Origin: an uncultured bacterium | GTDB lineage: Bacteria > CAYJRR01 | DNA: 34,317 bases | Direction of reading: 5' to 3' | Assembly: GCA_964372275.1 (NCBI GenBank) | Contig: CAYJRR010000041.1 | Span: 1-34,317 of the forward strand | Shown here: in pieces, positions 4,042-24,286 of the stretch | How the letters are laid out: each line of letters starts with the position of its first letter | Position numbering within the stretch: position 1 is the stretch's first letter | Position numbers and translations under genes: made by a program | Notes under the pieces: model-generated | Told to the model about the DNA's origin: nothing | What the model saw: the letters and a program-made list of their open reading frames with translations, nothing else | Databases searched by the model: none

Positions 4042-5208
4042 TCAGAAGAGCCGGCCTTGCTTGAGAAGCGCGCAGAATGCGGCAACCGGCAGGACCTCGA
4101 TGCCGTCTGGGAGCCGCATCTCGTCGCGGCCCGGATGGACCAGGATCCTCCGCCTCAGTCCGGACAGCGGCTCGATCGCCTTCAGGCCCTTGATCCAATC
4201 GGCGCGGAACCGGCGGCCGGATTTCGCCTCGATCGCCACGAACGACCGGCCCTTCTTCAGCAGGAAATCGACCTCGATTCCTTTCGCCTCGGTAGGGGAC
4301 CAGTAGTACATCTCGTCGAACAGATCCCGGTAGCTCCGATAGGCGCGAAGAATCTGGGCGGTCCATGCTTCGAACAGCGCCCCCTGTTCTTCTCCGGCGA
4401 CGGGTCCGAAGTCGCCTCTGGCGGCACGCGCGATACCGTTGTCGGCCCAATACAGCTTCGGATGCCTGCGCTCGCGCAGGCGGAGCTTGGCCTCGAAGCC
4501 GGGGAGCTCGAAGGCGAGCAGGGTGTCTTTCAGGATCTCGACGTACGAGGCGACCGTGGTCCGTTCGACGCCGCACTCCCGCGCAATCGACGAGACGCTC
4601 AGGATCTGACCGTTCAGGAGACCGGCGACGGGGAGGAACCGGACGAATCCCCCCAGGTTCCGGACGAGCGCCTCGGCCTGGATCTCCTCCTTCAGATAGG
4701 TCTGGACGTAGGTCTTCAGGCGCAGCTTTCGCTCCGACGGATCGCTGGCGACCACCAGGGGAAGCGTTCCCGACTCCAGCGCCCGTTGCAGGTCGAAGTC
4801 CGCCCCCATCTCCTCGGGGACGAGCGGCAGCATCTCGCGGAGCAGCGCCCGCCCCGCCAGGAGGTTTGCTCCGCCGCGCCTGAGTTTCCGCGCGCTGGAG
4901 CCGGTAAGGATGAACCGTAGTTTCCTCGTCTCGAGGAGCCGGTGAACGTCGTTCAGAAGGTTGGGGAGCCGCTGAATCTCGTCCACGAAGATCCACGCTC
5001 CGGGAGAGGCCATCCGCTCCACGAGTCCGGAGAAAACGGCGGGATCGGCGAGAATCCGCTGATAGAGGCCCTCGTCGAGAAGATCGATCCGCGGGGCTTC
5101 GGTGAACTCCCTTCCGACCCAGGTGCTCTTCCCCGACCCACGGACGCCGAACAGGAAGAACGAGCTTTTCGGGCGCTCCAGCATCCGGCGGTAGGAGACG
5201 TACGCCAT
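4042..5208 (-). CDS. AAA+ ATPase (AAA_14) with HTH and DUF4143 domain
   Basis: Walker A GVRGSGKST, Walker B IFVDEIQ, ILTGSS, LAGRA, KLYWADNG and C-terminal EVDFLL...AIEAK; start at ATG 5208. Confidence 0.9.
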   Translation of the reverse strand: MAYVSYRRMLERPKSSFFLFGVRGSGKSTWVGREFTEAPRIDLLDEGLYQRILADPAVFSGLVERMASPGAWIFVDEIQRLPNLLNDVHRLLETRKLRFILTGSSARKLRRGGANLLAGRALLREMLPLVPEEMGADFDLQRALESGTLPLVVASDPSERKLRLKTYVQTYLKEEIQAEALVRNLGGFVRFLPVAGLLNGQILSVSSIARECGVERTTVASYVEILKDTLLAFELPGFEAKLRLRERRHPKLYWADNGIARAARGDFGPVAGEEQGALFEAWTAQILRAYRSYRDLFDEMYYWSPTEAKGIEVDFLLKKGRSFVAIEAKSGRRFRADWIKGLKAIEPLSGLRRRILVHPGRDEMRLPDGIEVLPVAAFCALLKQGRLF

Positions 5209-5212
5209 GGCT

Positions 5213-5249
5213 GATCTCATATTTCGTCGAAAATTGAGATCGATGTCAA
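5213..5249 (-). promoter_or_regulatory. TTGACA -35 element and 29-bp imperfect palindrome (operator-like) upstream of the AAA/DUF4143 gene
   Basis: TTGACA on - strand at 5244-5249; GATCTCATATTTCG-T-CGAAAATTGAGATC at 5213-5241 (12 of 14 arm positions symmetric). The -10 element is weak. Confidence 0.55.
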
Positions 5250-5432
5250 CGAGCATCGATCGTGGATCGGCGCCAGACTGCGGCACGGATCGGATCGGCC
5301 TCGGCCGGTTCGGTCGTCGTCCTTCCAGTAAGGACAAGATGTCGAGAAAACGGTCGTCCACGAAGGACAAGGTTCAAACGCGAGGGGAGTCGGGTCCCCG
5401 CAACCCGGGAACTGCGCCGGCCCGGGGTTCGC

Positions 5433-5461
5433 TTGACGGCCGGGGGGCCGGCGCGTAGCAT
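5433..5461 (+). promoter_or_regulatory. Putative sigma70 promoter of the phosphonate operon
   Basis: TTGACG (5433-5438), 17-bp spacer, TAGCAT (5456-5461), about 50 bp before ATG 5511. Confidence 0.65.
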
Positions 5462-5510: not shown

Positions 5511-6704
5511 ATGGGAATTCTCCATCGATTCTGGGGGCCTTGGGCGTCGTTGATGCAGATTCGGCGGCTGCCGGCCTCGGACCGCGAGATCGTCTTCTAT
5601 TCGGAGGGGCGGTCGGATTGGCCGCACTTGGGGCCGATCGTTCGGGAGCTCGCGGCGGGGGGGCGGCGGGTCTGTTACGTGTCCTCCGAGGAGAGTGATC
5701 CGGGGCTTTCGCTCGGGGATCCGAACGTGGTCGGGTTCCACGTCGGGGCCGACTCGGCGCGAACGGCTTTTTTCAAGACGGTCGAGGCGAAGGTCGTGGT
5801 GATGACGATGCCCGACCTGGAGACCTTTTTCCTGAAGCGCTCGGTGCATCCGGCGCACTACGTCTACGTCTTCCACGCCATCGTCTCGAGCCACCGCATC
5901 TACCGGAAGGGGGCGTTCGACGCCTACGACACGGTGCTCGCGGTCGGACCCCACCACGTCGAGGAGATCCGCCGCACCGAGGCGGTCTACGGCTTGAGGC
6001 CCAAGGCGATCGTCGAGCACGGCTGCGCGCGGCTCGACGAAGTGATTCGCGCGGCGGCGGCGCGGCCGGCGTTCGTCCCCTCGCCGGGTCCGGCCAAGAA
6101 GGTGCTGCTCGCGCCGTCGTGGGGGGAGTGCTCCTTTGCCGAGCGGCCGTACGGGGGCGACCTGATCGACCTCCTGCTCCGCGCCGGGCACTCCGTCGTG
6201 CTGCGGCTCCACCCGATGACGGTGCGCCGTCTCCCCAAGCTCGGGCCCTCGATGGAGAGCCGCTTCGCGGGACGACCGGGGTTCCGCGTCGAGACCGACA
6301 TGAGCGCGCAGGAGTCGCTGCAGACCTCCGACCTGATGATCAGCGACTGGTCGGGAGCGGCGTTCGACTACGGGTTCGGTCTCCTGCGCCCGGTGCTGTT
6401 CGTCGACACCCCGACGAAGGTGAACAACCCCGAATGGCAACGGCTGGGGATCGCGCCGCTCGAAGAGAAGGTGCGGCGGGAGATCGGCGACGTTCTCGAT
6501 CCCGGGGAGCTGGCGCGGGCGCCGGAGAAGGTCGCGGCCTTGACCGCCGATCCGACCGCCTTCGCGCAGCGGCTCCGAGCGGCGCGCGAGCGCTGGGTCT
6601 TTCATGTCGGCCGCAGCGCGCCGGTGGCGGCCGCCCACATCGCGGGGCTTTGCAGCCCCGGAGACGAGCGGATGGCACCGCTCCAGGAAGCGAAGGCGAG
6701 ATGA
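5511..6704 (+). CDS. CDP-glycerol glycerophosphotransferase (TagF/TagB-like) family protein; putative phosphonyl transferase
   Basis: VLLAPSW, LRLHP and [15 protein letters not shown]...PVLF family motifs; stop overlaps the pepM start (ATGA). Confidence 0.8.
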
Positions 6705-8362
6705 GCACGAAGAAGAAGACGGCGGCGCTGCGCGAGATCCTCACCGGCAGGGGTGCGGGGAGTTCCCCGCAGGAGCCCGAACGGGCGGACAAGCGCCTGC
6801 GATTCCTGATGGAGGTCCACAACGGGCTCTCCGCCAAGATCGCCGAGGAGGCGGGGTTCGAGGGGTTGTGGGGAAGCGGACTGTCGATCTCCGCCTCGAT
6901 GGGCGTGCGCGACAACAACGAGATGAGCTGGACGCAGGTCCTCGAGCTGCTCGAGTTCGTGACCGACGCGGTGAAGATCCCACTGCTCCTCGACGGCGAC
7001 ACCGGTTACGGCAACTTCAACAACATGCGGCGGCTGGTGCAGAAGCTCGAGGCGCGCGACGTCGCCGGCGTCTGCATCGAGGACAAGCTCTTCCCCAAGA
7101 CCAACAGCTTCCTCGGCGAGAACCAGCCGCTCGCCGACATGGACGAGTTCTGCGGCAAGATCAAGGCGGGGAAGGACGCGCAGAGCGACGACGCCTTCTC
7201 GATCGTCGCCCGCGTCGAGGCGCTGATCGCCGGATGGGGCCTGGCGGAGGCCTTGAAACGCGCCGAGGCCTACCGGCGCGCCGGGGCCGACGCGATCCTG
7301 ATCCACAGCAAGCACTCCAAGCCGGACGAGATCCTCGCCTTCAAGAAGGAGTGGGGGGACCGCAGCCCGGTGGTGATCGTCCCCACCAAGTACTACTCGA
7401 CGCCGACGCAGGTGTTCCGCGACGCCGGGATCGACGTGGTGATCTGGGCCAACCACCTGATGCGCAGCTCGCTCACCGCGATGCAGGAGACGGCGAAGCA
7501 GATCAAGCGCGAGGAGAGCTTGATCGACGTCGAGGGCCGGATCGTCGGCGTCAACGAGGTCTTCCGCCTGCAAGGGGCCGGGGAGCTGGAGGAGGCGGAG
7601 CGCCGCTACCTTCCGGCCAAGCAGGAGTCGCCGCAGGCGCTGATCCTCGCCGCCGGACGCGGCAAGGAGCTGGGGGTCCTCACCGAGGACCGCCCCAAGG
7701 CGATGGTCGAGATCGCCGGCAAGCCGCTCCTGGAGCGGACGGTGGAGACGCTGAACGCGATCGGCATCAACGACATCACCGTCGTGCGCGGCTGGAAGAA
7801 GGAGGCGCTCAAGCTTCCGAACCTGAAGTTCGTCGACAACGACGAGCACGAGACGACGCAGGAGGCGTTCTCGCTCTTCAAGGGGATCGAGAAGCTCGTA
7901 GGGCCCGTGCTGATGGGCTACGGCGACGTGCTGTTCCAAAAGTTCATCCCGATGCACCTGTTCGAGTCGGACGCCGACTTCTGCATCGCGGTCGACTCGG
8001 AGGCGTCGTCCAGCCCCGGCCAGGACCGCTACCGGGACCGCGTCGCCTGCGACCGGCCGTTCCACTGGAACCGCTTCGACCAGAAGGCGTACCTGACGAA
8101 GATGAGCGCCGGTCTCCCCCAGGCCGAAACCCACGGCGAGTGGATCGGGCTCTTGAAGATGTCCGCCGCGGGGCTTGCGCAGCTCAAGTCGATCGGAAAG
8201 GAGATCGCCGGCGGCGCTTCGTTCCGAACGATGCGAATGGCCGACCTGTTCACCGTCCTCCTGGAGCGCGGGAAGAAGGTGGAGGTGGTCTACGTCCGCG
8301 GGCACTGGCTGGACGTCGACGACCTGCACGACGTCGTCGCGGCGGCGGGCCAATACCGATGA
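6701..8362 (+). CDS. pepM: Phosphoenolpyruvate mutase fused to C-terminal nucleotidyltransferase (PntC/LicC-like)
   Basis: Diagnostic EDKxxxxxNS ([10 protein letters not shown]), HNGLSA, DGDTGYG, VPTKY; C-terminal ILAAGRG...DRPKAM and WLDVD. True start ATG 6701. Confidence 0.96.
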
Positions 8363-10599
8363 AAGCGATCGTCATCGCCGCGGGGCTCGGAAGCCGGCTC
8401 CTCCACCTCACCAAGGACCGGCCGAAGTGCACGCTGACGATTCAGGGGGTCTCGCTGCTCGACAATCAGCTCGCCATCTTCCGCGAACTGGGAATCCACG
8501 ACGTCACGATCGTCACCGGCTGGCACGCGGAGATGCTGCAACGTCCCGGGGTGAAGACGGTCTTCAACGACGACTTTCGGAACAACAACATCCTCTTCTC
8601 GCTGATGTACGCGGAGAAGGAGCTCGACGACGAGGTGATCGTCACCTACTCCGACATCCACTACGAAAAGGCGGTGGTCGAGGCGCTGCAGGCGGCGACC
8701 GGCGACTTCCTGGCGGTGGTGGATGCCGACTGGAAGAAGACCTACGTCGGGCGCGCCGACCATCCGGTGGAGCAGGCGGAGAAGGTGGTGATCGCCGGAT
8801 CCGAGATCCGGAAGATCGGAAAACACCTGACCGAGGCCGAGGCGCACGGCGAGTTCATCGGGTTGGTGCGGTTCTCCAAGAAGGGGGCGCTCGCCTTCCG
8901 CGAGGTGTTCGCCGACGTGAAGGCGAAGCATGCCGGAGGTTCGTTCCAGGCGGCGAAGGAGCTGAAGAAGGCCTACCTTACCGACATGCTCCAGGAGCTG
9001 ATCGACCGCGGGCACGCGGTGGCGCCGGTGACGATTCACGGCGGCTGGCGCGAGATCGACACCCTCGAAGATTTCCGGAAGGCGGGGGGCGACGTGCCGT
9101 CGGACATCCGCAGCGGACAGAACTTTCGCGCGATCCTCAACGACCTGAAGCGGCGTCCCGAGGACGCCGGACTGCTCNNNNNNNNNNCCTATTTTTCCGG
9201 TCGGGGGGGGGGCCCCGCGCCGCCGCCCCCCCGCCCCCCACACCCCCCCCCCGCCCCCCCCCCCCCCCTCCCGCGCCGCCCCCGGCGCGCCGCGGCCGAG
9301 CTCGGCGTTCCGCTCGCCGAGATCGAGGCGGTGATCGCCGGGAAGCGCCCCCTCCCCTCCGCGATCGTCGACAAGGCGGTCGCGGCCTGGCCGGTCAGCC
9401 CCCGCGACTTCTACCTCCTCGAGGACGACGCCCCGACCGGGGTGCGGATCTTCCGCGAAGCCGACTCGAAACGGAGCCGGCGCGTCATGCAGCGCGCCGG
9501 GAAGGACTACTACGAGTACCGCGACACCGCGATGAGCGCCGGCTCTCAGTTCCGCCCCGAATGGATCCAGGAGCTTTGCGTCGTCGACGACGACGACCCG
9601 GAGAACCCGGCCGTCCAGTGGAACAACGGTCACTTCCTCCACCAGTTCACCTACTTCGTCGGACCGGTGAACTTCTACTGGCGCGGACCCGATGGACGGA
9701 AGCGCGTCTCGGTGATGGAGACCGGCGGCTCGATGTACATCACCCCGTTCGTGCCGCACTCGTTCGCGTCGCGGCGAAACGAGCGCGGGGAGTTGGGGCT
9801 GATCCTGGCGCTCACCTACGGCAACCTGCTCGGCGGCGAGACGCGGCAGGAGATCGGCGCCCACGGGGTCGAGCTGGCGTCGCGCCTGGCGCTCGACTTT
9901 TCCGCCCCCGGCGCGGCGCGTGGCGCCCTGATCCGCTTTCACCGCGAGGGGTCGAGCCTCACCAAGGCCGAGCTCGCCCGGCGCGCCGACGTGGCGCCGG
10001 CGCGCATCGACGAATTGGAACGGGGAGCAGAGACCGCGTCCGAGGCCGAGATCCGGCGTCTGGCGGCCGCGCTGCGGGTGAACGTTCGCGACCTGCTGCC
10101 GCCGGAGCCGGAGGAGGCGGTGATCGTGCGCCATCGCAAGGACGCGCCGCGCTGGACCTACCCCGAAGCCGGCAGCAAGCCCGAAACGTCCCCCGCCTAC
10201 GAGATGGTGGAGCTGACGCCGGTGCGAAGCCTCCCCTTCTCCAAGGGGCTCGAGGTGAACGTCCTTTCCGGCGGAACCGCGGCCCCCGACCTGCAGGTCG
10301 GACTGCAGCAGTACGTCTACAACGTCGGCTCCACGCCGGTGGCCCTCTCCTGGCGGAACGGCGGCGAGTCGTACGAAACGACGCTTGGCCCGGACGACTC
10401 CGCGTATCTGAAGGCGTGCGTCCCGCACGCCTACCGCGGCGAAGGGGGACGCCTGCTGGTGCTGCGCATCGGCTCGCGGCTGGGAAGCGACGGACTGATG
10501 GAGCTGTCGCGGATCGCGGCAGCGGGTGCGGGCAATTTGGAGCGCATCGTGGGTGATGCAGGACAGTGGTTCGACAAAGCTGGGCGGCGGAATGTGTAG
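8359..10599 (+). CDS. mpnS: Fusion of nucleotidyltransferase (about 8359-9090) and methylphosphonate synthase-type Fe(II) dioxygenase (about 9094-10599), interrupted by an assembly gap
   Basis: N-terminus IAAGLGSRL...DRPK, YLTD, WREIDT; C-terminus [60 protein letters not shown], closely resembling Nitrosopumilus MPnS as I recall it. ATGA overlap with pepM. Confidence 0.88.
9169..9291. other. Scaffold gap (10 N at 9178-9187) with flanking low-complexity C-rich sequence, probably artefactual
   Basis: Ns and C/G homopolymer runs; removing these 123 bp restores KRRPEDAAAELGV. Confidence 0.8.
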
Positions 10600-10605
10600 G
10601 TTCGC

Positions 10606-11751
10606 ATGATCCAAGCGCCCGACTTTTTGGAACCCGCTTTGGCGCGGGGCTTCACCTTCTGGTCGGGTGTCCCCTGCTCGTTCCTCACCCCCTTCATCAA
10701 CTACGTCCTCTCCCGCGACGACCTCGACTACGTCGGGGCGGCGAGTGAAGGGGAGGCGCTGGGGATCGCCGCGGGGGCGCACCTCGCGGGGCGGAAGACG
10801 GTCGTCATCTGCCAGAACTCGGGGCTCGGCAACGCGGTCAATCCGCTGACCTCGCTCAACCACATCTTCCGGATTCCGACCCTCTTCATCACCACCCATC
10901 GCGGCGCGCCGGGTCTCAAGGACGAGCCGCAGCACGCGCTGATGGGGCAGATCACCGGGGAGCTGCTCACCACGATGCAGATCCCGTGGGAGGTCTTTCC
11001 CGACGACGCCGCGGCCGTCGTCCCTGCGCTCGAGCGCGCGGAGCGGTCGATGGCCGAAACCGGGCGTCCGTTCGCCTTCGTCATGAAGAAGGGGACGGTC
11101 GCCGACTATCCCCTCCGCACGAGGGAACGCCGCGCCGTTCCGCCGATGGCCCAACCGTCGGGGACGTTCACCGCCGCGGTCCGGATGACGCGACTCGACG
11201 CCATCCGCGTGGTGCGCGACGCGGCCGGGCCGGACGTGGCGCTGATCGGCACGACCGGGAAGATCGGCCGCGAGCTCTATGCACTGGGCCATAGCCCGAA
11301 CCAGCTCTACGTCGTCGGCTCGATGGGCTGCGCCTCCGGGATCGGACTGGGCCTCCACCTCGGATCGCGCGGAAAGCGGCGGGTGGTCGTCCTCGACGGC
11401 GACGGCGCGGCGCTGATGAAGATGGGCACGATGGCGACGATCGGACACGCCGCCCCCGCCAAGCTCGTCCACGTGATCGTCGACAACGAGGCCCACGAAT
11501 CGACCGGCGGACAGGCGACCGTCTCCTCGTCGATCGACTTCGCGACGGTCGGCAGCGGCTGCGGCTATCGCCATCTGTGGCGAGTCGACTCGGCAGAAGC
11601 GCTCGCCGCGGCGGTCTCGGCGGCGCTCGAGCGCACCGGCCCCATCCTGGTGCACGTGAAGGTGGGGATCGGCTCCGCCCCCGACCTCGGCCGCCCGGCC
11701 CACACCCCGGTCGAGGTGAAGGAGCAGTTCATGAGCTGGTTCGCCCGGTGA
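10606..11751 (+). CDS. aepY: Phosphonopyruvate decarboxylase (ThDP-dependent)
   Basis: GVPCS, QNSGLGNAVNPLTSL, DEPQH, VGSMGCAS, DGDGAALM, HESTGGQ; pepM operon context. Confidence 0.95.
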   Translation: MIQAPDFLEPALARGFTFWSGVPCSFLTPFINYVLSRDDLDYVGAASEGEALGIAAGAHLAGRKTVVICQNSGLGNAVNPLTSLNHIFRIPTLFITTHRGAPGLKDEPQHALMGQITGELLTTMQIPWEVFPDDAAAVVPALERAERSMAETGRPFAFVMKKGTVADYPLRTRERRAVPPMAQPSGTFTAAVRMTRLDAIRVVRDAAGPDVALIGTTGKIGRELYALGHSPNQLYVVGSMGCASGIGLGLHLGSRGKRRVVVLDGDGAALMKMGTMATIGHAAPAKLVHVIVDNEAHESTGGQATVSSSIDFATVGSGCGYRHLWRVDSAEALAAAVSAALERTGPILVHVKVGIGSAPDLGRPAHTPVEVKEQFMSWFAR

Positions 11752-11758
11752 CGCGATC

Positions 11759-12886
11759 TTGAGGAGCTTCCACAATCCCGTGTCGGTGCGCTTCGGCGCC
11801 GGCGCCCTCGGCGAGCTTCGCGACCTCGCGCGCGGGCGGCGCGCCGTCGTGCTCGCTTCCGAGGGGATCGTCCGTCGCGGGACGCTGGCCGCGGTCGAGT
11901 CGGCGCTCGACGTCACCGGCCGCTTCACCTCGATCGCCCCGAACCCGACCCTCCTCGCCTGTTCCCAGGTCGCGGAGCGCCTCGCGGCCTGCGCGGTCGA
12001 GGTGGTGGTGGCGATCGGCGGCGGGAGCGTCCTCGACACCGCCAAGGCGTTCGCCGCCCAGCGGTCGGCCCCGGACGGTTGGCTGTCGGCGCACCTGCGC
12101 GAGGGCGCACCCTTCCCCGCCGACTTTCGCCCGCCTCCGATCCTCGCCGTCCCGACGACGGCCGGCACCGGAAGCGAGGTGACGATGTGGGGGACGGTCT
12201 GGGACGAGAAGACCGGACGCAAGTATTCGATCTCCCACCCGCGCCTCTATCCGGAGGCAGCCCTCGTCGATCCGACCCTGACGCACACCCTTCCGCCGGC
12301 GACGACGGTGGCGACGGCGCTCGACGCCCTGTCGCACGCGATGGAGGCGATCTGGAACAAGGGCTCGAATCCGGTCTCGGACGGCCTCGCCCTGCGCGCG
12401 ATCGAGGTCGTCCCCGACGCGTTGCCGCGGGTCCTGGCGCAGCCGGCGGACGCCGCGGCGCGAGAGGCGCTGGCCGGCGCCGCGCTCCTCGCGGGCCTCG
12501 CCTCGAGCAACACCCGCACGGCGCTCGCCCACTCGATCTCCTACCCGCTCACCTCCGAGCTCGGCGTGCCGCACGGTCTGGCGTGCAGCCTCACCCTGCC
12601 GGCGATCCTGGAGCGTGTCGACGACGAGAAGCCGGCGCGCGCCGCGCTCATCGCCCGGGCGATCGGCCAGCCGACCCCGCGCGCCGCCGCCGAGGCGCTC
12701 CGCTCCACGTTCCGGGCGGCCGGTGTCGGCGAGGAGCTTCGACGCCGGATCGCCGGCGTCGACGCGCTCGCCGGGCTGCGTGGCTCCCTCATCGCCCCGG
12801 GCCGCGCCGAGAACTGCCTGATTGCCGCCGACGCGCCGGCGGCCGCGGAGATCCTGCGCCGGTCGTACGAAGCCCTCTGCGCCTAG
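11759..12886 (+). CDS. Iron-containing alcohol dehydrogenase, probable phosphonoacetaldehyde reductase
   Basis: GGGSVLDTAK, PTTAGTGSEVT, DALSHAMEAIW, TALAHSISYPLT, HGLAC; follows aepY; TTG start. Confidence 0.88.
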   Translation: MRSFHNPVSVRFGAGALGELRDLARGRRAVVLASEGIVRRGTLAAVESALDVTGRFTSIAPNPTLLACSQVAERLAACAVEVVVAIGGGSVLDTAKAFAAQRSAPDGWLSAHLREGAPFPADFRPPPILAVPTTAGTGSEVTMWGTVWDEKTGRKYSISHPRLYPEAALVDPTLTHTLPPATTVATALDALSHAMEAIWNKGSNPVSDGLALRAIEVVPDALPRVLAQPADAAAREALAGAALLAGLASSNTRTALAHSISYPLTSELGVPHGLACSLTLPAILERVDDEKPARAALIARAIGQPTPRAAAEALRSTFRAAGVGEELRRRIAGVDALAGLRGSLIAPGRAENCLIAADAPAAAEILRRSYEALCA

Positions 12887-13782: not shown

Positions 13783-16734
13783 CTATGTAGGAGGCCGCGC
13801 GAGACCGTGGCGTATCGCCCATCCGGTCGCCTCGGCGCGCCCGTGCGCGCCGATCTTCGCGTAGATGTTGGCGATGTGACGCTGAACGGTAGTGAGGCTC
13901 AGGTACAGCCGAGATGCGATCTCCTTGTTCGTTCGCCCCGCCGCCAGAAGGCCCAGGACTTCGGCCTCGCGTCCCGTGAGTCCGCCGGGATGCACACGGT
14001 CACCGCGCGCGGCACGGACGCGCTCCACCCATGTCTGCATCCCGAGACGCGCGAAGCCGGCCTCGGCATCGGCGAGCAGGTCCGAGGCGCGGACCCGCTC
14101 ACGCGGAGGTCGGCCGAGCCGCCATCGCGCCTCGTCGAAATCGGCGAGCGCGCGGACCGGCCGCTGCCCTCGCGCTTCGGCCGCTTCCCGAGCCCGCATG
14201 AATCCGTCGTGGGCTCGGCGCGCATCGCCGGCAAGCGCCGCCATTCGGGCGATCGAGAGCTCGCGGCAGGAGAAGGGCGCGCCCCCCACTCCCTCTCGGC
14301 CCGATTCGATCGCGATCCGGAGGTAGCGCCGCGCCAGTTCCGGATCTGCCAACTCCCAGACAGCGGCCGCGGCGCAGTCTCGACTCACACCGAAGTCAGC
14401 GGTGAGCGGCGGGAGAGACTCGTGAGCGCGAACCATCGCGCTCAATAGCCGCGTCGATTCGGCCCCCTCACCCGCCATCGCGAGTCCGAGGATGACCAGC
14501 CCCGAAAGGACGAGTCCGAACGCCGTCCGTGACGTCTCCGGATCGGTAACGATCCGATGGGGCTCGCCGACCACGGTCGGCCATTCGGCGCCGCCGAGAT
14601 AACCGAGCACGGTTCGCAGTGCGGTCGGCGCGACCACGCGATAGCGGTGCCCGGATCCGAGCCGCTCGGCCACTTCACCCAGCCGTATCGCCGTACGGCG
14701 CGCCGACTCGAGTTCCCCCAGGGCGGCCTGGCTGCATCCGATCACGACGAGCGCGCCGGCTTCTCCCGGGATCGAGCCGTATCGTTCGCAAAGGGCGAGC
14801 ATCTCCTCCATGACCGAGATCGCCGCGTGATAGTCCTGGTGCCGGAAGAAGCAATCGCGCCCCAAGGCGTTGAGCGCGGCGATCCTCGCGGCCGGCGACC
14901 TCCAGCTACGCACACGGCCCAGCGCCTCGTCGGTTTCGGCGCGCGTCCGATGCCACCCGGTGTCGAGCGTCGACGCGAAGTCGTCCTCGCTTGCCTGCGC
15001 GCACAGCACGGCGATCGCCTCCGGATCGACCGGCACGCAGACCCCGACGTGGATCGGCCCTGAAAGGACCGGCTCGATGCGGTCACGGAGCAGCATCAGT
15101 CTCGCCCAAGGCGCGCTCCGCTCGCTGCCGAGCATGGCGAGCCCGCGGTCGACGAGCGGTTCCCACCACCCCCTCGGCGCGCCGCCGGCCTTGAGCGCGC
15201 GCGCGACGGCCGCGAGAAAATCGGCGACCACGGCCGCGGGAGCGCCTGCCTCCTCCAGCGCCCGCCACGCATCCTCGGTCGTCCTCGCCGCGCGCTCGAG
15301 TAGGAGCGCCTCCGCCTCCGCAAGGGCCTGCCCGCGCAACACCTGCGATCGCCGCTCCGCGGTCAGGTACCGGCCGAGGTCGCGGGCCACCGCGAACAGG
15401 GTCGCCGCCCGCTCGTGGGCCGCCCCCGCACGCGCGCGCTCCGCGGCCAGGAGGGCATGGTCGACGCCGCGCTCGGCCCCAGGAAGATCGACCGATGCGT
15501 GGAAGTGGAAAGCGATGTCGCCCGGATCGCCGCCGATTCGCTCGAGGGACTCCGCGATCCGCCGGTGTGCGCGCGCCCGCCGCCATGGATCGAGGCGGTC
15601 GTATATCGTCCGACGCACCAACGCGTGCGAGAAGTGATAGCGCCCGCGGACACCCCGCCGAATCAAGCCGGCCGCCGCCGCCTCGTCGGCGCAGGCGAGA
15701 AGAGACTCGTCTGTGAAGCCGGTCGACCCCTGGAGCACGTTGAAATCGATCTCGCCGACGAGTGCGGCCGCGTCGTGGAGCATCGCAACCGTATCGGCGG
15801 AGAGTCGAGAGAGGCGACGCGCGACGACGGCGCGAACACCCACGGGCAGTCCCAGCTCCCCGAAGCTGCTTTCCGAGGACCAGCGGCCCTCGCGCGCCAC
15901 GATCTTGCGTTCCTCGACGAGGTGGCGGAAGAGCTCGCGGAGGTAGAAGGGGTTCCCATCGGTTTCGGCGAGGAGCGTGCGTGCCAGCGCCTGCGGTACA
16001 TCCCCCCCGCTCTCCAGGGCGAGGTAATCGCGCACTTCCTCTTCGTCGAGGCCGCGGAGCGATAGGATCTGCGCTCCCGCGTCTCGCGCGAGCGTGCCCT
16101 CCAGTTCGGAGATCGCCGCACGGTCGAGACCGATCTCCGGGTCTCGCCACGTACAGAGCACGAACCACCGCCGCCGGGGAACGAACCGGGCGACGTGCCT
16201 CAACAGGCCCAGCGTGTCGCGGTCGGCCCAGTGGAGGTCCTCCAACACGACCAGGACAGGACGATCCGCCGCCACAGCGGACAGCCAACGGGTCACGGCG
16301 TCGTGGAGACGTGCACGCTCCTCGGGCGCTGCGAGCGGGGCGACGGGTGGCAGGTTGGGAAGAGCGCCGCGAAGGTCGGACGATAGCGCGGCCAATGCCG
16401 GCGCGCCGGCGCCCATCTCGCGCACAAGCCGGTCGGGCGGAACGGCACGCAGGTATCGCTCCAGCGACTGCAGCCAAGGTCCGAAGGGCCGGGTGCCGTC
16501 CGATTCGAAACACGCACCGCGAAGGACGCGCGTGCCACGGGACGCCGCCCGCGCAGCGATCTCTTCGGCCAGACGTGTCTTGCCGATCCCCGCCTCGCCC
16601 ACCAGACAGGCTGCCGCCCCACGCCCGTCCTCGGCCAGGCCGAGGAGCGTGAGCAGCCGTTCCAACTCCCGGTTCCTTCCGACGAACCGATCGCCCATCG
16701 CGCGCCGTGAGTCTACCTCCGCCAGTTGGGGCAT
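13783..16734 (-). CDS. Large ATP-binding LuxR-family regulator (ATPase, helical repeats, LuxR HTH)
   Basis: FVGRNREL, GEAGIGKT, LEDLHWAD, GNPFY, C-terminal LTGREAEVL...TNKEIA...TVQRHIANIYAK. Start uncertain (16800, 16734 or 16698). Confidence 0.9.
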   Translation of the reverse strand: MPQLAEVDSRRAMGDRFVGRNRELERLLTLLGLAEDGRGAAACLVGEAGIGKTRLAEEIAARAASRGTRVLRGACFESDGTRPFGPWLQSLERYLRAVPPDRLVREMGAGAPALAALSSDLRGALPNLPPVAPLAAPEERARLHDAVTRWLSAVAADRPVLVVLEDLHWADRDTLGLLRHVARFVPRRRWFVLCTWRDPEIGLDRAAISELEGTLARDAGAQILSLRGLDEEEVRDYLALESGGDVPQALARTLLAETDGNPFYLRELFRHLVEERKIVAREGRWSSESSFGELGLPVGVRAVVARRLSRLSADTVAMLHDAAALVGEIDFNVLQGSTGFTDESLLACADEAAAAGLIRRGVRGRYHFSHALVRRTIYDRLDPWRRARAHRRIAESLERIGGDPGDIAFHFHASVDLPGAERGVDHALLAAERARAGAAHERAATLFAVARDLGRYLTAERRSQVLRGQALAEAEALLLERAARTTEDAWRALEEAGAPAAVVADFLAAVARALKAGGAPRGWWEPLVDRGLAMLGSERSAPWARLMLLRDRIEPVLSGPIHVGVCVPVDPEAIAVLCAQASEDDFASTLDTGWHRTRAETDEALGRVRSWRSPAARIAALNALGRDCFFRHQDYHAAISVMEEMLALCERYGSIPGEAGALVVIGCSQAALGELESARRTAIRLGEVAERLGSGHRYRVVAPTALRTVLGYLGGAEWPTVVGEPHRIVTDPETSRTAFGLVLSGLVILGLAMAGEGAESTRLLSAMVRAHESLPPLTADFGVSRDCAAAAVWELADPELARRYLRIAIESGREGVGGAPFSCRELSIARMAALAGDARRAHDGFMRAREAAEARGQRPVRALADFDEARWRLGRPPRERVRASDLLADAEAGFARLGMQTWVERVRAARGDRVHPGGLTGREAEVLGLLAAGRTNKEIASRLYLSLTTVQRHIANIYAKIGAHGRAEATGWAIRHGLARPPT

Positions 16735-16826
16735 CGACGTCTCACGGACGGACACGTCGAACCCGGCCGGTGCCGACCGCAGACCCGATCGACCCGTCAA
16801 CGGACGCGCCGGCGCCCGGTTTTTCG

Positions 16827-17507: not shown

Positions 17508-18677
17508 TCAGCCCATCGCCTGCTCGAGGTCGGCGATCAGGTCGTCGGCGTGCTCCAGACCGACCGACAGCCGCACCAGCCCGTCGCCGATGCCGATCGC
17601 CCGGCGCTTCTCCGGCTCGACCGAGGCGTGGGTCATGATCGCCGGATGCTCGATCAGCGATTCGAAGCCACCGAGGCTCTCGGCGCAGGTGAACAGCTTG
17701 CACCTCGTCATCAGCCGCCGCGAGGGCTCCAGGCCCCCCTTCACCTCGAACGAGATCATCCCGCCGAATCCGCTCATCTGCCGCGCGGCTGTCGTGTGCT
17801 GCGGATGGCTCGCGAGCCCCGGGTAGATCACCCGCGAGACGTCGCGCCGCTCGGAGAGCCACCGCGCGATCGCCTCCGCGTTCCGCTCGTGACGCTCCAT
17901 CCGGAGCGCGAGCGTCCGCAGGCCGCGCAAGGTGAGGAAGCAGTCCATCGGGGACGGCACCGCGCCGATGGCGTTCTGCAGGAAGCGGAGCCGCTCGGCG
18001 TGGGCGGCGTCGCGCGTCACGACGGCGCCGCCGACGACGTCGGCGTGGCCGTTCAGATACTTCGTCGTGGAGTGCACGACGACGTCGATCCCCAGGTCGA
18101 GCGGCCGCTGGAAGATCGGCGTGGCGAAGGTGTTGTCGACGATCGAGACCAGCCCCTTCACCCGGCAGAACTCCGCCAGCGCGCGGAGGTCGATCACCTT
18201 CAACAGCGGGTTGGTCGGCGTCTCGACCCACACCGCGCGCGTGTTCGGCCGCCACGCGCGCTCCAGGTTCGCCGGGTCGGTGAGGTCGGTGAAGGTGAAC
18301 TGGAAGCCGTCGCGGGAGAGGACCTTGTCGAACAGGCGATAGGTCCCGCCGTAGACGTCGTCGGAGACGATGACGTGATCGCCGGCGCCGAAGAGGTGGA
18401 GCACCGTGGCGGTGGCGGCGCTGCCGGAGGCGAAGGCGAGACCCTTGGCCCCCCCGGCCGGGTCCGCGTCCTCCAGGGCGGCGATCGCGGCCTCGAGCGC
18501 CTCACGGGTGGGGTTCTGCGTCCGCGAGTACTCGTACCCCTTGTGGACCCCCGGCGCCTCCTGCGCGTAGGTCGAGGTGTAGAAGACCGGCGTGGTGACC
18601 GCGCCGGTCACCGGCTCCGGCTTGGATCCGGCGTGAGTGGCGATCGTCTCCAGTCGCGGGGCGCGTGCGTGGGCCAT
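17508..18677 (-). CDS. Cystathionine gamma-lyase/gamma-synthase family PLP enzyme
   Basis: YEYSRTQNPT, FASGSAA, YGGT, ETPTNP, DNTFATP, HSTTKYLNGH (PLP lysine), RLSVGLE. Start 18677 or 18689. Confidence 0.93.
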   Translation of the reverse strand: MAHARAPRLETIATHAGSKPEPVTGAVTTPVFYTSTYAQEAPGVHKGYEYSRTQNPTREALEAAIAALEDADPAGGAKGLAFASGSAATATVLHLFGAGDHVIVSDDVYGGTYRLFDKVLSRDGFQFTFTDLTDPANLERAWRPNTRAVWVETPTNPLLKVIDLRALAEFCRVKGLVSIVDNTFATPIFQRPLDLGIDVVVHSTTKYLNGHADVVGGAVVTRDAAHAERLRFLQNAIGAVPSPMDCFLTLRGLRTLALRMERHERNAEAIARWLSERRDVSRVIYPGLASHPQHTTAARQMSGFGGMISFEVKGGLEPSRRLMTRCKLFTCAESLGGFESLIEHPAIMTHASVEPEKRRAIGIGDGLVRLSVGLEHADDLIADLEQAMG

Positions 18678-18818: not shown

Positions 18819-20375
18819 ATGGAAGCATACGGGCGCTATTCGCTGATCCGACGGATCGGCTCCGGGGGAATGGCCGAAGTCTGGAAGGCTCGCGCGGCGG
18901 GTCCGAGCGGCTTCCAGAAGGAGTTTGCGCTCAAGCGCGTGCTTCCTCACCTCACGGAGGATTCCGAGTTCGTCGAGATGTTCATCGACGAGGCCAAGCT
19001 CGTCGCCGGCCTCGTCCATCCGAACATCGTCCAGGTCTTCGATTTCGGCAGCGTCGGAGCGCACGAGTACTACCTCGCGATGGAATACGTCGCCGGCGCC
19101 AACCTCGCGTCGCTGCAAAAGCGACTGGAGGAGGCTCGGGCTCGATGGAGCCCGGACGTGGCCGCCTACATCACGATCGAAGCGTGCCGCGGTCTGGGGT
19201 ACGCACACGAAAAGACCGACACCGACGGCAGGCCGCTCTCCTTGGTGCATCGCGATGTGTCGCCGCAGAACGTGCTCGTCTCCTTCGGCGGCGAGGTGAA
19301 GGTCACCGATTTCGGTATCGCCCGGGCGGCCCACACCACGTCGCGAACCGCGGCCGGACTCGTCCGCGGCAAGCTCGCCTACATGAGCCCGGAGCAGGCC
19401 GCCGGCGAGCCGATCGACGCGCGAAGCGACCTCTTTTCGCTGGGTCTGGTGCTCTATGAGCTGCTTTTTGGCCGCCGACTCTTCCACGGCGGCTCCACCG
19501 AGATCGCGCGGCAGATCCAGGAGTTCACCTCCATCGCGCAGGAGGAGTTGGACGCCCTGCCACCGGCCATTGCCGACGTCCTGGTATCGACGCTCGCGCT
19601 CGATCCGCGGGCGCGCTTCCAACGGGCGGCGGACCTGGAGGCATCGCTGGCCGGCTACCTTGGCGCGCGGTTGGTCGCGGCGCGCCGGGAGCTGTCCGAG
19701 CTGATCTGCCGCCTTTTCGAGGCGGAGCGGGTCCGGAACCGTTCCGACGAGAAGGGACCGGCCGAACGATCCACCGAGATGACGGAGGAGCTCGCGTCGG
19801 AACCGTTCCGCGGTGCGATGGCGATGGCGGCCTCCGGCGAGCCGCATCGGTCGTCCGAGATCGGATCGGACTCGGTGACGTTCCACGTGCCCGGTGTCGT
19901 GATCCGGGAGCAGGCCGGAGGACCGAGCCCGGGTCCGCTTTCCAGGCGACGTGCAGCGGCCGGGGTCGCCGTCGGCGCGGCAGGCGCGTTGTTCGCCGGT
20001 CTCTTCACCCATCGCTGGCTGTCGGAACCCCGTACCCGTCTTCAAGCGACCGAACCGAAGCCGGCACCGACTCCGATTGCGGCCGAGACGACGCCCGGCG
20101 CCCCTTCACAGCGCAGCACGCCGAACCCGTCGACCGGGTACGCGACGCTGGGCGTCGCGGTGCGTCCCTGGGCGGAAGTCTGGATCGACGGAAAGTTGAT
20201 GGCCGCCGAAGCTTCGAACGTCACCTATCGCCTTCGCGCCGGCGTCCACCGCGTCCGCCTGGTCAATCCGGGAAACAACTTCTCCAAGGAGATTCCGGTG
20301 AAGCTCGATCCCGGCGCGAAGGCCACCGTCTCGGCAGACATCCGCACCGGTTCGATCCAGGTGGAGTCGCGATGA
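18819..20375 (+). CDS. Membrane Ser/Thr protein kinase with C-terminal PEGA-like domain
   Basis: IGSGGMAEV, ALK, HRDVSPQN, DFG, YMSPEQ; hydrophobic segment; VRPWAEVWIDG...LRAGVHRVRLVNP. Confidence 0.93.
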   Translation: MEAYGRYSLIRRIGSGGMAEVWKARAAGPSGFQKEFALKRVLPHLTEDSEFVEMFIDEAKLVAGLVHPNIVQVFDFGSVGAHEYYLAMEYVAGANLASLQKRLEEARARWSPDVAAYITIEACRGLGYAHEKTDTDGRPLSLVHRDVSPQNVLVSFGGEVKVTDFGIARAAHTTSRTAAGLVRGKLAYMSPEQAAGEPIDARSDLFSLGLVLYELLFGRRLFHGGSTEIARQIQEFTSIAQEELDALPPAIADVLVSTLALDPRARFQRAADLEASLAGYLGARLVAARRELSELICRLFEAERVRNRSDEKGPAERSTEMTEELASEPFRGAMAMAASGEPHRSSEIGSDSVTFHVPGVVIREQAGGPSPGPLSRRRAAAGVAVGAAGALFAGLFTHRWLSEPRTRLQATEPKPAPTPIAAETTPGAPSQRSTPNPSTGYATLGVAVRPWAEVWIDGKLMAAEASNVTYRLRAGVHRVRLVNPGNNFSKEIPVKLDPGAKATVSADIRTGSIQVESR

Positions 20376-22912: not shown

Positions 22913-24286
22913 TTGGTGCCGATTCCGCCGATCCGTTTCGGTCGGTACACCCTGCTGGCCCCGCTCGCCGCCGGAGGAATGGCCGAGCTGTTCCTCGCCC
23001 ATTGCCCGGATGAACCGGGCTCCGGAATCGTCGTCCTCAAGCGCATCCTCGGACGGCACGCCGCCGACCCCGAATTCATTCGGATGTTCCTTGACGAGGT
23101 CGAGATCGCGCGCGACCTCCGGCACGAGAACATCGTTCCGATCCTCGACTACGGCGAGCTCGACGGCCAGTATTTCCTGACCATGCCCTACGTCGAGGGA
23201 AGCGATCTTTGGGCCTTGATCGAGGCCCTGCCGCGGGTTCGCGCGCGGTTCGGCGTCGCGGAAGCGGTTCACGCGGTCTCTGCCGTTTGCCGCGGACTGG
23301 AGTTCGCCCACTCCCGCACCGACGCGAAGGGGACGTCGCGCGAGATCGTCCACCGGGACATTTCGCCGGAGAACGTGCTCGCCTCGATCGACGGGGAGCT
23401 GATGATTGCCGATTTCGGGATCGCGAAGGCCACCCACCGCAACGCACGGACGCGAGTGGGACTGGTGAAGGGGAAGCGGGCCTACATGAGCCCGGAGATG
23501 GTGTGGGGAAAGCCGGTCGACCGCCGACATGACGTCTTCTCCGCCGGCGTGGTTCTGTGGGAGCTCCTCGCCGGTCGGCCGTTGTTCGAAGGTCGGACGG
23601 ACCAGGAGTTGCTCGCTGCCCGGGTCTTCTCCGAGATCGAGAGACCCAGTCGATTCAATCCGGACGTGACGGAGGATCTCGACACGGCGGTCATGAAGGC
23701 GCTCGCATCCGACCGGGACGACCGATACGCGACGGCCCGGCAGTTCGGCGATGCGCTGGAGGACTGGCTGCGCCGCCGCCGGATCGACGATGGACGTGCG
23801 CGGATCGCTTCGCTGGTGGCGCGCTGCCACGGCGAGACGCTGGCGCGGACGCGGGAGAAGCTCTACTCCGTCCTCACCGAGCATGGGCTGCTACCACCGG
23901 ACGCATCGTCCGCGGCTCGCCTGGGCGAGATCCTCCGAAGCGACGCCGTGGCCGCAACGACGACCGTGGCGCGCGTGGTGCCGAGGCCACGAAGACACGC
24001 GCCGCCATCCCTGACGCAGGCGGCGGCGAAGACGACGATGTTCCAGGGTGCCGGCGGGGGTCCAAAGCTCGAACCATGGGAGCCTCCCTACGAGCCGGGG
24101 TTGACCGGCCTCATCCGCAAGAAGGCCGCGGAGATGACCACCGCCGTGGCCCAGGTGGTGCGACGGAGGCCGGCCGCAGCGCCGAGCGCACGCCCACGCG
24201 GACTGGCGCTGCAATGGTGGCTTCTCGGCGGGCTCTCCATCGGCGCATTGGTGGCCGCGAGCCTCGCCGCGCTCAATCGAATGTAG
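22913..24286 (+). CDS. Ser/Thr protein kinase with C-terminal membrane anchor
   Basis: AAGGMAEL, VLKR, HRDISPEN, DFG, YMSPE; terminal hydrophobic helix. Start TTG 22913 or GTG 22916. Confidence 0.92.
   Translation: MVPIPPIRFGRYTLLAPLAAGGMAELFLAHCPDEPGSGIVVLKRILGRHAADPEFIRMFLDEVEIARDLRHENIVPILDYGELDGQYFLTMPYVEGSDLWALIEALPRVRARFGVAEAVHAVSAVCRGLEFAHSRTDAKGTSREIVHRDISPENVLASIDGELMIADFGIAKATHRNARTRVGLVKGKRAYMSPEMVWGKPVDRRHDVFSAGVVLWELLAGRPLFEGRTDQELLAARVFSEIERPSRFNPDVTEDLDTAVMKALASDRDDRYATARQFGDALEDWLRRRRIDDGRARIASLVARCHGETLARTREKLYSVLTEHGLLPPDASSAARLGEILRSDAVAATTTVARVVPRPRRHAPPSLTQAAAKTTMFQGAGGGPKLEPWEPPYEPGLTGLIRKKAAEMTTAVAQVVRRRPAAAPSARPRGLALQWWLLGGLSIGALVAASLAALNRM

Follow-up and report, generated by a model that had tools for sequence, protein, structure and literature searches.

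A predicted methylphosphonate synthase fused to a nucleotidyltransferase in a phosphonate gene cluster of an uncultured high-GC bacterium

We describe here a gene of an uncultured high-GC bacterium whose C-terminal domain is very probably a methylphosphonate synthase (MPnS) making methylphosphonate (MPn) as its product, as judged from sequence, and whose N-terminal domain is a predicted nucleotidyltransferase. The gene occupies positions 8359 to 10599 on the forward strand of contig CAYJRR010000041.1 (assembly GCA_964372275.1), of which a stretch of 34,317 nucleotides, referred to here as the window, was analyzed, and it lies in a phosphonate gene cluster at 5511-12886. In oxygenated water, C-P lyase acts on methylphosphonate and thereby sets methane free. 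A first-pass annotation of the window had pointed to five active-site residues as favoring MPnS over hydroxyethylphosphonate dioxygenase (HEPD), and this choice is supported by every sequence-level comparison made here, namely by the residues themselves, the best relative in the Protein Data Bank (PDB), the clades in which the gene falls, the predicted fold and the neighboring genes. The enzyme itself is an ordinary member of the MPnS family; what is unusual is limited to its fused architecture and to a cluster that is not marine and may be mobile.

Active-site residues, fold and relatives of the oxygenase domain

The frame of the open reading frame (ORF) ending at 10599 reads CAC (His) at 9631-9633, CAG (Gln) at 9643-9645, TTC (Phe) at 9673-9675, ATC (Ile) at 9739-9741 and CAC (His) at 9757-9759, and the five codons with their offsets of +4, +14, +36 and +42 from His 9631 are those that the first-pass annotation had listed. 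In this signature (9631..9759, + strand), which we abbreviate HQFIH, His 9631, Gln 9643 and His 9757 are the iron ligands and Phe 9673 and Ile 9739 form the second shell. The 435-residue domain downstream of an assembly gap within the gene (9292-10596) was compared by phmmer with all PDB chains, and the best match is MPnS (6b9s/6b9t; E 2.2e-122, 412.5 bits), with query residues 2-432 on chain residues 36-455 and an alignment that is ungapped from query residue 2 through the second His. Second is the HEPD of S. albus, 6b9r (E 1.2e-80, 275 bits), and the entries of hydroxypropylphosphonate epoxidase (HppE) come next (E 1e-6 to 4e-5). Class I HEPD is absent from this single-sequence search of PDB chains; its structures 3g7d, 4yar and 3rzz are matched by a profile of 48 diverse homologs (alignment A2; E about 5e-24 to 2e-23).

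Counted along the 6b9s chain, the five residues face H148, Q152, F162, I184 and H190 column for column, and the N. maritimus numbering and offsets given in the first-pass annotation are therefore right. They face H149, Q153, Y163, G184 and H190 of S. albus HEPD 6b9r, in agreement with the earlier statement that Gln-containing HEPD has Tyr and Gly at the two second-shell sites. In the profile alignment the class I enzyme PhpD has Ala at the Gln column. Its Glu (Glu176 of the class I 2-His-1-Glu triad), placed six residues ahead of the second His, falls at the Ile column and corresponds to the 2-His-1-carboxylate arrangement; with Ile in that place the gene here lacks the class I triad. HppE chain 4j1x has Glu at the column of Gln 9643 in the phmmer alignment. 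Because of the residues in these columns, alignment with MPnS, class I and class II HEPD and HppE leaves only the MPnS pattern as a fit, and none of the three alternatives. Published structural work on MPnS (Born et al. 2017, Science 358:1336) reportedly places Phe162 and Ile184 behind the Gln ligand, where the pair is said to keep Gln on the iron and to steer the reaction to MPn, not to hydroxymethylphosphonate and formate. The 12 of 51 supplementary files of PMC9381506 that were covered yielded no residue numbers.

Other residues of the pocket are conserved as well. Arg 9493, Tyr 9517 and Asn 9622 (9493..9624, + strand), the equivalents of R102, Y110 and N145, occupy columns that are invariant in the 48 diverse homologs of alignment A2, and the Lys of an LKRRPED motif at 9148..9150 (+ strand), just upstream of the gap, aligns with K28 of N. 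maritimus MPnS. We take the R102, Y110 and N145 equivalents, with K28, to bind the phosphonate and to enclose free 2-hydroxyethylphosphonate (2-HEP) as in MPnS, the K28 equivalent presumably reaching the substrate from the partner subunit.

An AlphaFold2 model built from alignment A2 has a mean pLDDT of 94.5 and a pTM of 0.91. All of ranks 1-11 in a Foldseek search with this model are MPnS chains (TM-score up to 0.93, root-mean-square deviation (rmsd) 1.4-3.7 Å), the best being 6b9t_B, a complex with 2-HEP and Fe(II), at TM-scores of 0.93/0.91, an rmsd of 1.6 Å and 45% identity over about 430 columns. These are followed by 6b9r (TM-score 0.91, 38% identity) and then by class I HEPD (TM-score 0.69-0.73, 21-22% identity; for 3g7d, 0.69 and 21%). 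In the predicted structure the domain matches the two-helix-turn-helix (HTH), two-cupin MPnS fold of 6b9s/6b9t.

Two sets of homologs were aligned with the domain, namely the 120 best matches from a search of 5.8 billion proteins and the 150 best representatives of a library clustered at 50% identity. HQFIH is present in 118 of the former, the other two having HQSIH and HQYGH, respectively; the latter comprise 98 with HQFIH, 25 with HQYGH and 27 with other combinations or gaps at these columns. Of 44 named genome loci found, 43 cover the site, and 37 of these have HQFIH, three HQYGH and three HQYIH. That the HQFIH pattern is beyond chance, and how DISCRIMINATING, is judged from these homolog counts and from a 435-residue domain with a 412-bit match to MPnS.

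The three loci with the Tyr/Gly pair of class II HEPD type are from a Marine Group I thaumarchaeote (L026), a member of the Pyrinomonadaceae (L042) and a member of the Isosphaeraceae (L045), and are 44-47% identical to the gene here, a level that equals that of true Nitrosopumilus Phe/Ile genes. The three HQYIH loci, from SAR202/Chloroflexota metagenome-assembled genomes (MAGs; L032, L036 and L040), are hybrids with Tyr at the Phe site and Ile at the Gly site, and for these the two-residue rule gives no product reading. A different arrangement is seen in an 813-residue protein (P0179), in which an iron-containing alcohol dehydrogenase is fused N-terminally to an MPnS-like domain with Val and Met at the discriminating sites (HQVMH); P0240 has the same HQVMH signature without the dehydrogenase fusion.

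Phylogenies group the gene with Phe/Ile sequences. A FastTree phylogeny of 155 rows (left after removal of 45 of 200 that had short coverage or a gapped signature) places it in a clade of 44 rows with 100% support, all of them Phe/Ile, and gathers 15 of the 18 Tyr/Gly rows in a separate 17-row clade (97%), the other three being elsewhere. A quick IQ-TREE run on 69 rows hand-picked from the FastTree set likewise has the gene in a clade of 10 rows with 100% support, all Phe/Ile, and a wider set of 29 rows with 99% support contains 27 Phe/Ile rows, two others and no Tyr/Gly row. Both trees contain archaeal Phe/Ile relatives, N. maritimus MPnS and S. albus HEPD themselves not being among the rows; a fuzzy motif look-up for these characterized enzymes returned relatives only, with 5-6 mismatches per 23 residues. 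Among kin found only at the 'same domain' level, 0 of 40 genomes had a match.

These data bear on a rival explanation, in which the domain would be a class II (Gln-type) HEPD with hydroxymethylphosphonate and formate as products, like the S. albus enzyme. Such an enzyme has identical His/Gln/His ligands and the same fold (6b9r; E 1.2e-80, TM-score 0.91), and in overall similarity Tyr/Gly homologs trail many Phe/Ile ones by only a small margin. However, the gene here has Phe and Ile instead of Tyr and Gly and falls in supported clades that lack Tyr/Gly members, and the Tyr-Gly motif is termed 'diagnostic of class II HEPD' in the available part of PMC8976061. We therefore regard a HEPD activity as very unlikely.

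The fusion gene and its assembly gap

A single ORF (8359..10599, + strand) with no stop between its domains encodes a nucleotidyltransferase (NT2) fused to MPnS. Its ATG at 8359 overlaps the stop codon of the preceding PepM gene (ATGA), and it is collinear from end to end with homologs of 702-708 residues (P0002, P0004, P0013, P0028 and P0049; alignment A1). NT2 (8359..9093, + strand) is confirmed as a MobA-like NTP transferase domain of PF12804 (E 3.9e-12; 47.1 bits, with a cut-off of 27) and is LicC/PntC-like in its best PDB matches, LicC 1jyk (E 1.5e-13) and also PntC 6pd1 (E 8.8e-6). The MPnS domain (9094..10599, + strand) is HTH-cupin-HTH-cupin by homology, alignment and model, and a GTG at 9094 coincides with the start position of the stand-alone homologs P0003 and P0036.

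The fusion is common among relatives. An arrangement of PF12804/PF00483, HTH and cupin in 689-711 residues is present in 39 of the 42 closest matches listed (64-70% identity); the other three are 457-493 residues long, one of them having the same sequence as a 702-residue protein throughout their common part. Independent fusions of a PF12804 nucleotidyltransferase to domains of the MPnS/HEPD family recur in distant clades (P0159, P0174, P0185, P0204, P0229, P0242, P0250 and P0253), including one with the Tyr/Gly signature (P0204), and in the Nitrosopumilus MPnS loci the cluster encodes a homolog of NT2 (35-39% identity) as a gene of its own. No description of an MPnS-nucleotidyltransferase fusion was found in the full-text literature, and a search by the names of the discriminating residues also found no paper on one, subscription journals lying mostly outside the coverage of both searches. 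The available part of Rice et al. 2019 (PMC6697681) gives an inventory of fusions to PepM, in which PepM-nucleotidyltransferase, the arrangement seen here for PepM and NT1, is the common type; MpnS, methylphosphonate and HEPD have no occurrences in its main text.

A fused nucleotidyltransferase raises the possibility that this Phe/Ile enzyme has another physiological substrate or product, for example a nucleotide-linked 2-HEP comparable to CMP-HEP in fosfomycin biosynthesis. The cluster contains two nucleotidyltransferases, one of them fused directly to the oxygenase, and PMC6697681 cites, in the part available, Fom1 as a PepM-fused cytidylyltransferase making CMP-HEP. However, superposition of the model on the 2-HEP complex 6b9t gives an rmsd of 1.6 Å, stand-alone forms (P0003 and P0036) occur in the same clade, and the equivalents of K28, R102, Y110 and N145, the residues presumed to enclose free 2-HEP, are all conserved. 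This alternative is very improbable, and free 2-HEP remains our preferred substrate.

The deposited gene is interrupted by what is annotated here as a scaffold-gap artefact (9169..9288, no strand), in which nine aberrant bases precede 10 N (9178-9187) and a poly-C/G stretch of about 100 nt follows. Because this stretch is in frame, the deposited ORF stays open with a false Pro-rich insert. Compared with all seven aligned homologs, it adds 40-41 codons (about 9169-9288) at a point where their flanks RRPED and AAAELGV abut exactly with no missing residue. The run of N is about 350 nt upstream of the flagged residues, which are unaffected. The genome contains 56 such runs, 44 of ten N and 12 of a hundred N, the usual marks of scaffolding, and we read this one as two contig ends joined by the scaffolder. 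Its right flank has 53 of 120 nt in poly-C/G, the highest among the 56 gaps, only two of which reach 15; 0.8% of random 120-nt windows reach that value.

If 9169-9288 were a real insertion or unresolved sequence, it would disrupt the N-terminal helix beside the K28 equivalent and the gene would be broken. The N and poly-C stretch is indeed present in the deposited sequence, and its poly-C/G load is the heaviest among the gaps of the genome. However, ten-N and hundred-N runs mark scaffolding genome-wide, the flanks join exactly on the homolog alignment, as a continuous RRPEDAAAELGV coding sequence would, and the remaining ORF is open and conserved over its whole length. We give a broken gene very little credence and treat the gene as presumably intact. 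The Pro-rich translation of 9188-9288 was also considered as a real linker and rejected; it lies inside a conserved helix, beside the run of N, and none of the seven aligned homologs has it.

The phosphonate cluster and its origin

The genes at 5511-12886 are on the same strand and tightly packed, with junctions that overlap or are of 6-7 nt. At the head is a homolog of TagF-like CDP-glycerol glycerophosphotransferases (5511..6704, + strand; PF04464, E 5.6e-7), which keeps this position in Limnocylindria, Acidobacteriota and Myxococcota loci and is a candidate transferase of activated phosphonate to a polymer. Its stop codon is overlapped by the start of the PepM gene (6701..8362, + strand), in which PepM (PF13714, E 3.9e-61; TIGR02320, 378.7 bits, above the cut-off of 319.55), with an EDK-x5-NS motif at 7079-7108, is fused to a C-terminal nucleotidyltransferase (NT1; PF12804, E 2.6e-12) whose nearest PDB structure is LicC 1jyk. 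The fusion gene is followed by phosphonopyruvate decarboxylase (Ppd; 10606..11751, + strand; TIGR03297, 428.1 bits, above the cut-off of 312.5) and by an iron-containing alcohol dehydrogenase (Fe-ADH; 11759..12886, + strand; PF00465 and PF25137), with TIGR03405 (Phn_Fe-ADH) as its best NCBIfam model. The dehydrogenase is probably a phosphonoacetaldehyde reductase making 2-HEP. PepM, Ppd and Fe-ADH around the MPnS gene would supply its 2-HEP substrate, and the gene set matches the pathway from phosphoenolpyruvate (PEP) to 2-HEP given in the available part of PMC8931226.

A sigma-70-like promoter match, TTGACG-17-TAGCAT (5433..5461, + strand), lies 50 nt upstream of the first cluster gene; it is a weak match by consensus only, and was the one site found in the promoter scan (mean of 0.2 in shuffles). 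Near the cluster are an upstream DUF4143 AAA ATPase (4042-5370, - strand), a 1005-residue AAA-ATPase/LuxR-type regulator (13783-16800, - strand) and two Ser/Thr protein kinases (18819-20375 and 22913-24286, both + strand).

The cluster and the rest of the genome have different nearest relatives. Clusters in Candidatus Limnocylindria/Chloroflexia MAGs (L003-L006 and L014) match this one in gene order, with 57-79% identity between the genes, and two Myxococcota loci have a different gene order and an MPnS of 47-51% identity. For an rpoB fragment of the same genome (contig C190) the nearest matches are from Cystobacter and a Myxococcales MAG (71% identity), with no Chloroflexota- or Limnocylindria-titled record among the best 80. 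A Cys/Met pyridoxal phosphate (PLP) enzyme at 17511-18650 of the window has Myxococcales/Myxococcota MAGs as its nearest relatives (64% identity) and likewise no Limnocylindria-titled record among the best 80; these two comparisons are peptide-pattern look-ups, not trees. A Limnocylindria-like cluster on a Myxococcota-like backbone suggests that the phosphonate cassette was transferred between phyla. That the contig is a mis-binned Limnocylindria contig was considered and set aside, given the Myxococcales affinity of the PLP enzyme that it carries. No match to PhnJ, of C-P lyase, was obtained in the genome, which is 94.6% complete.

Proposed function and comparison with known systems

From the residues, homology, fold, clade, fusion and gene context described above we infer the product, the nucleotidyltransferase substrate and the acceptor, as follows. 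PepM would convert PEP to phosphonopyruvate, Ppd would decarboxylate this to phosphonoacetaldehyde, and Fe-ADH would reduce the aldehyde to 2-HEP. The C-terminal ~455 residues of the fusion protein would then act as a non-heme Fe(II), O2-dependent bicupin oxygenase, cleaving the C1-C2 bond of 2-HEP to yield MPn and CO2, with iron presumably held by His 9631, Gln 9643 and His 9757, and with Phe 9673 and Ile 9739 predicted to pack behind Gln as in N. maritimus MPnS. The N-terminal ~245 residues, LicC/PntC-like, most likely convert MPn to a nucleotide-linked form such as CMP-MPn, and the TagF-like transferase would then pass the activated MPn to a surface glycan or a teichoic-acid-like polymer. 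That NT2 activates the MPnS product is the simplest reading, the use of CTP and MPn being proposed from the fusion and gene context.

Several points weigh against assignment as an MPnS. Of the best 150 representatives ordered by E-value, the 9th, 10th and 12th carry Tyr/Gly, with 45-48% identity to the domain, and the Tyr/Gly locus of the Marine Group I thaumarchaeote is 47% identical, equal to the Nitrosopumilus Phe/Ile loci. Overall similarity cannot part the two activities, and the assignment therefore hangs largely on two residues and tree position. The link between Phe/Ile and the product rests on a few characterized enzymes. Fe-ADH scores 337.6 bits, below the phosphonate alcohol dehydrogenase cut-off of TIGR03405 (423.7). 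The gene as deposited includes about 110 nt of junk besides the 10 N, and its intactness is presumed from homologs. Finally, with two nucleotidyltransferases in the cluster, either one, or neither, may take MPn. For surveys, the consequence is that similarity cut-offs alone would mislabel loci of class II HEPD type, and a check of the two residues is needed.

The known makers of MPn are mostly marine (Nitrosopumilus, SAR11 and others) according to the available part of PMC9381506, and in the Flathead Lake study (PMC10734540), as far as its available part goes, mpnS was not found by KEGG annotation. Such an MPnS, in a high-GC bacterium with soil and groundwater MAGs as its closest kin, widens where MPn may be made, and the fused nucleotidyltransferase serves as 'Rosetta-stone' evidence on the step by which MPn would be joined to polymers. 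Our broader proposal, which we hold tentatively and with slightly less than even confidence, is that the soil and sediment bacteria carrying the fusion channel fresh MPn to a nucleotide-activated form and on to a surface polymer, and that the cassette is mobile across phyla and constitutes a terrestrial source of MPn. If true, terrestrial bacteria would be an unrecognized and mobile source of MPn that is turned to methane by C-P lyase under oxic conditions.

Among known systems, N. maritimus MPnS (6b9s/6b9t) shares with the domain here the bicupin fold, the His/Gln/His ligands, the Phe/Ile pair and the conserved pocket residues, and the Nitrosopumilus loci have the same PepM, Ppd, alcohol dehydrogenase and nucleotidyltransferase partners. 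However, the nucleotidyltransferase is fused here, in place of roughly the first nine archaeal residues, whereas in Nitrosopumilus the NT2 homolog is separate and on the opposite strand, and the host is a high-GC bacterium and not a marine archaeon. The class II HEPD of S. albus (6b9r) and AlpG of argolaphos biosynthesis are alike in fold, His/Gln/His ligands and 2-HEP substrate, but class II HEPD differs in having Tyr163/Gly184 where Phe/Ile are found here, in its lower score (275 versus 412 bits) and in the placement of Tyr/Gly sequences in other clades. Class I HEPD (PhpD of S. viridochromogenes; 3g7d/3gbf) has a similar overall architecture and substrate, but is matched by profile only (E 7e-24) at 21-22% identity and a TM-score of about 0.7, with Glu at the Ile column and Ala at the Gln column. 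HppE (1zz6, 4j1x and 5u55) resembles the domain in combining HTH and cupin, in the strand positions of its iron site and in using a phosphonate substrate, but is a single HTH-cupin protein of half the size (about 198 residues) with an H-x3-E...H site, compared to the 435 or more residues and the Gln of the domain here. The PepM-nucleotidyltransferase fusions and PntC/LicC enzymes covered in the available part of PMC6697681 are similar in that NT1 and NT2 are both PF12804 domains nearest to LicC 1jyk; the fusion partner there is PepM, whereas NT2 is fused to MPnS.

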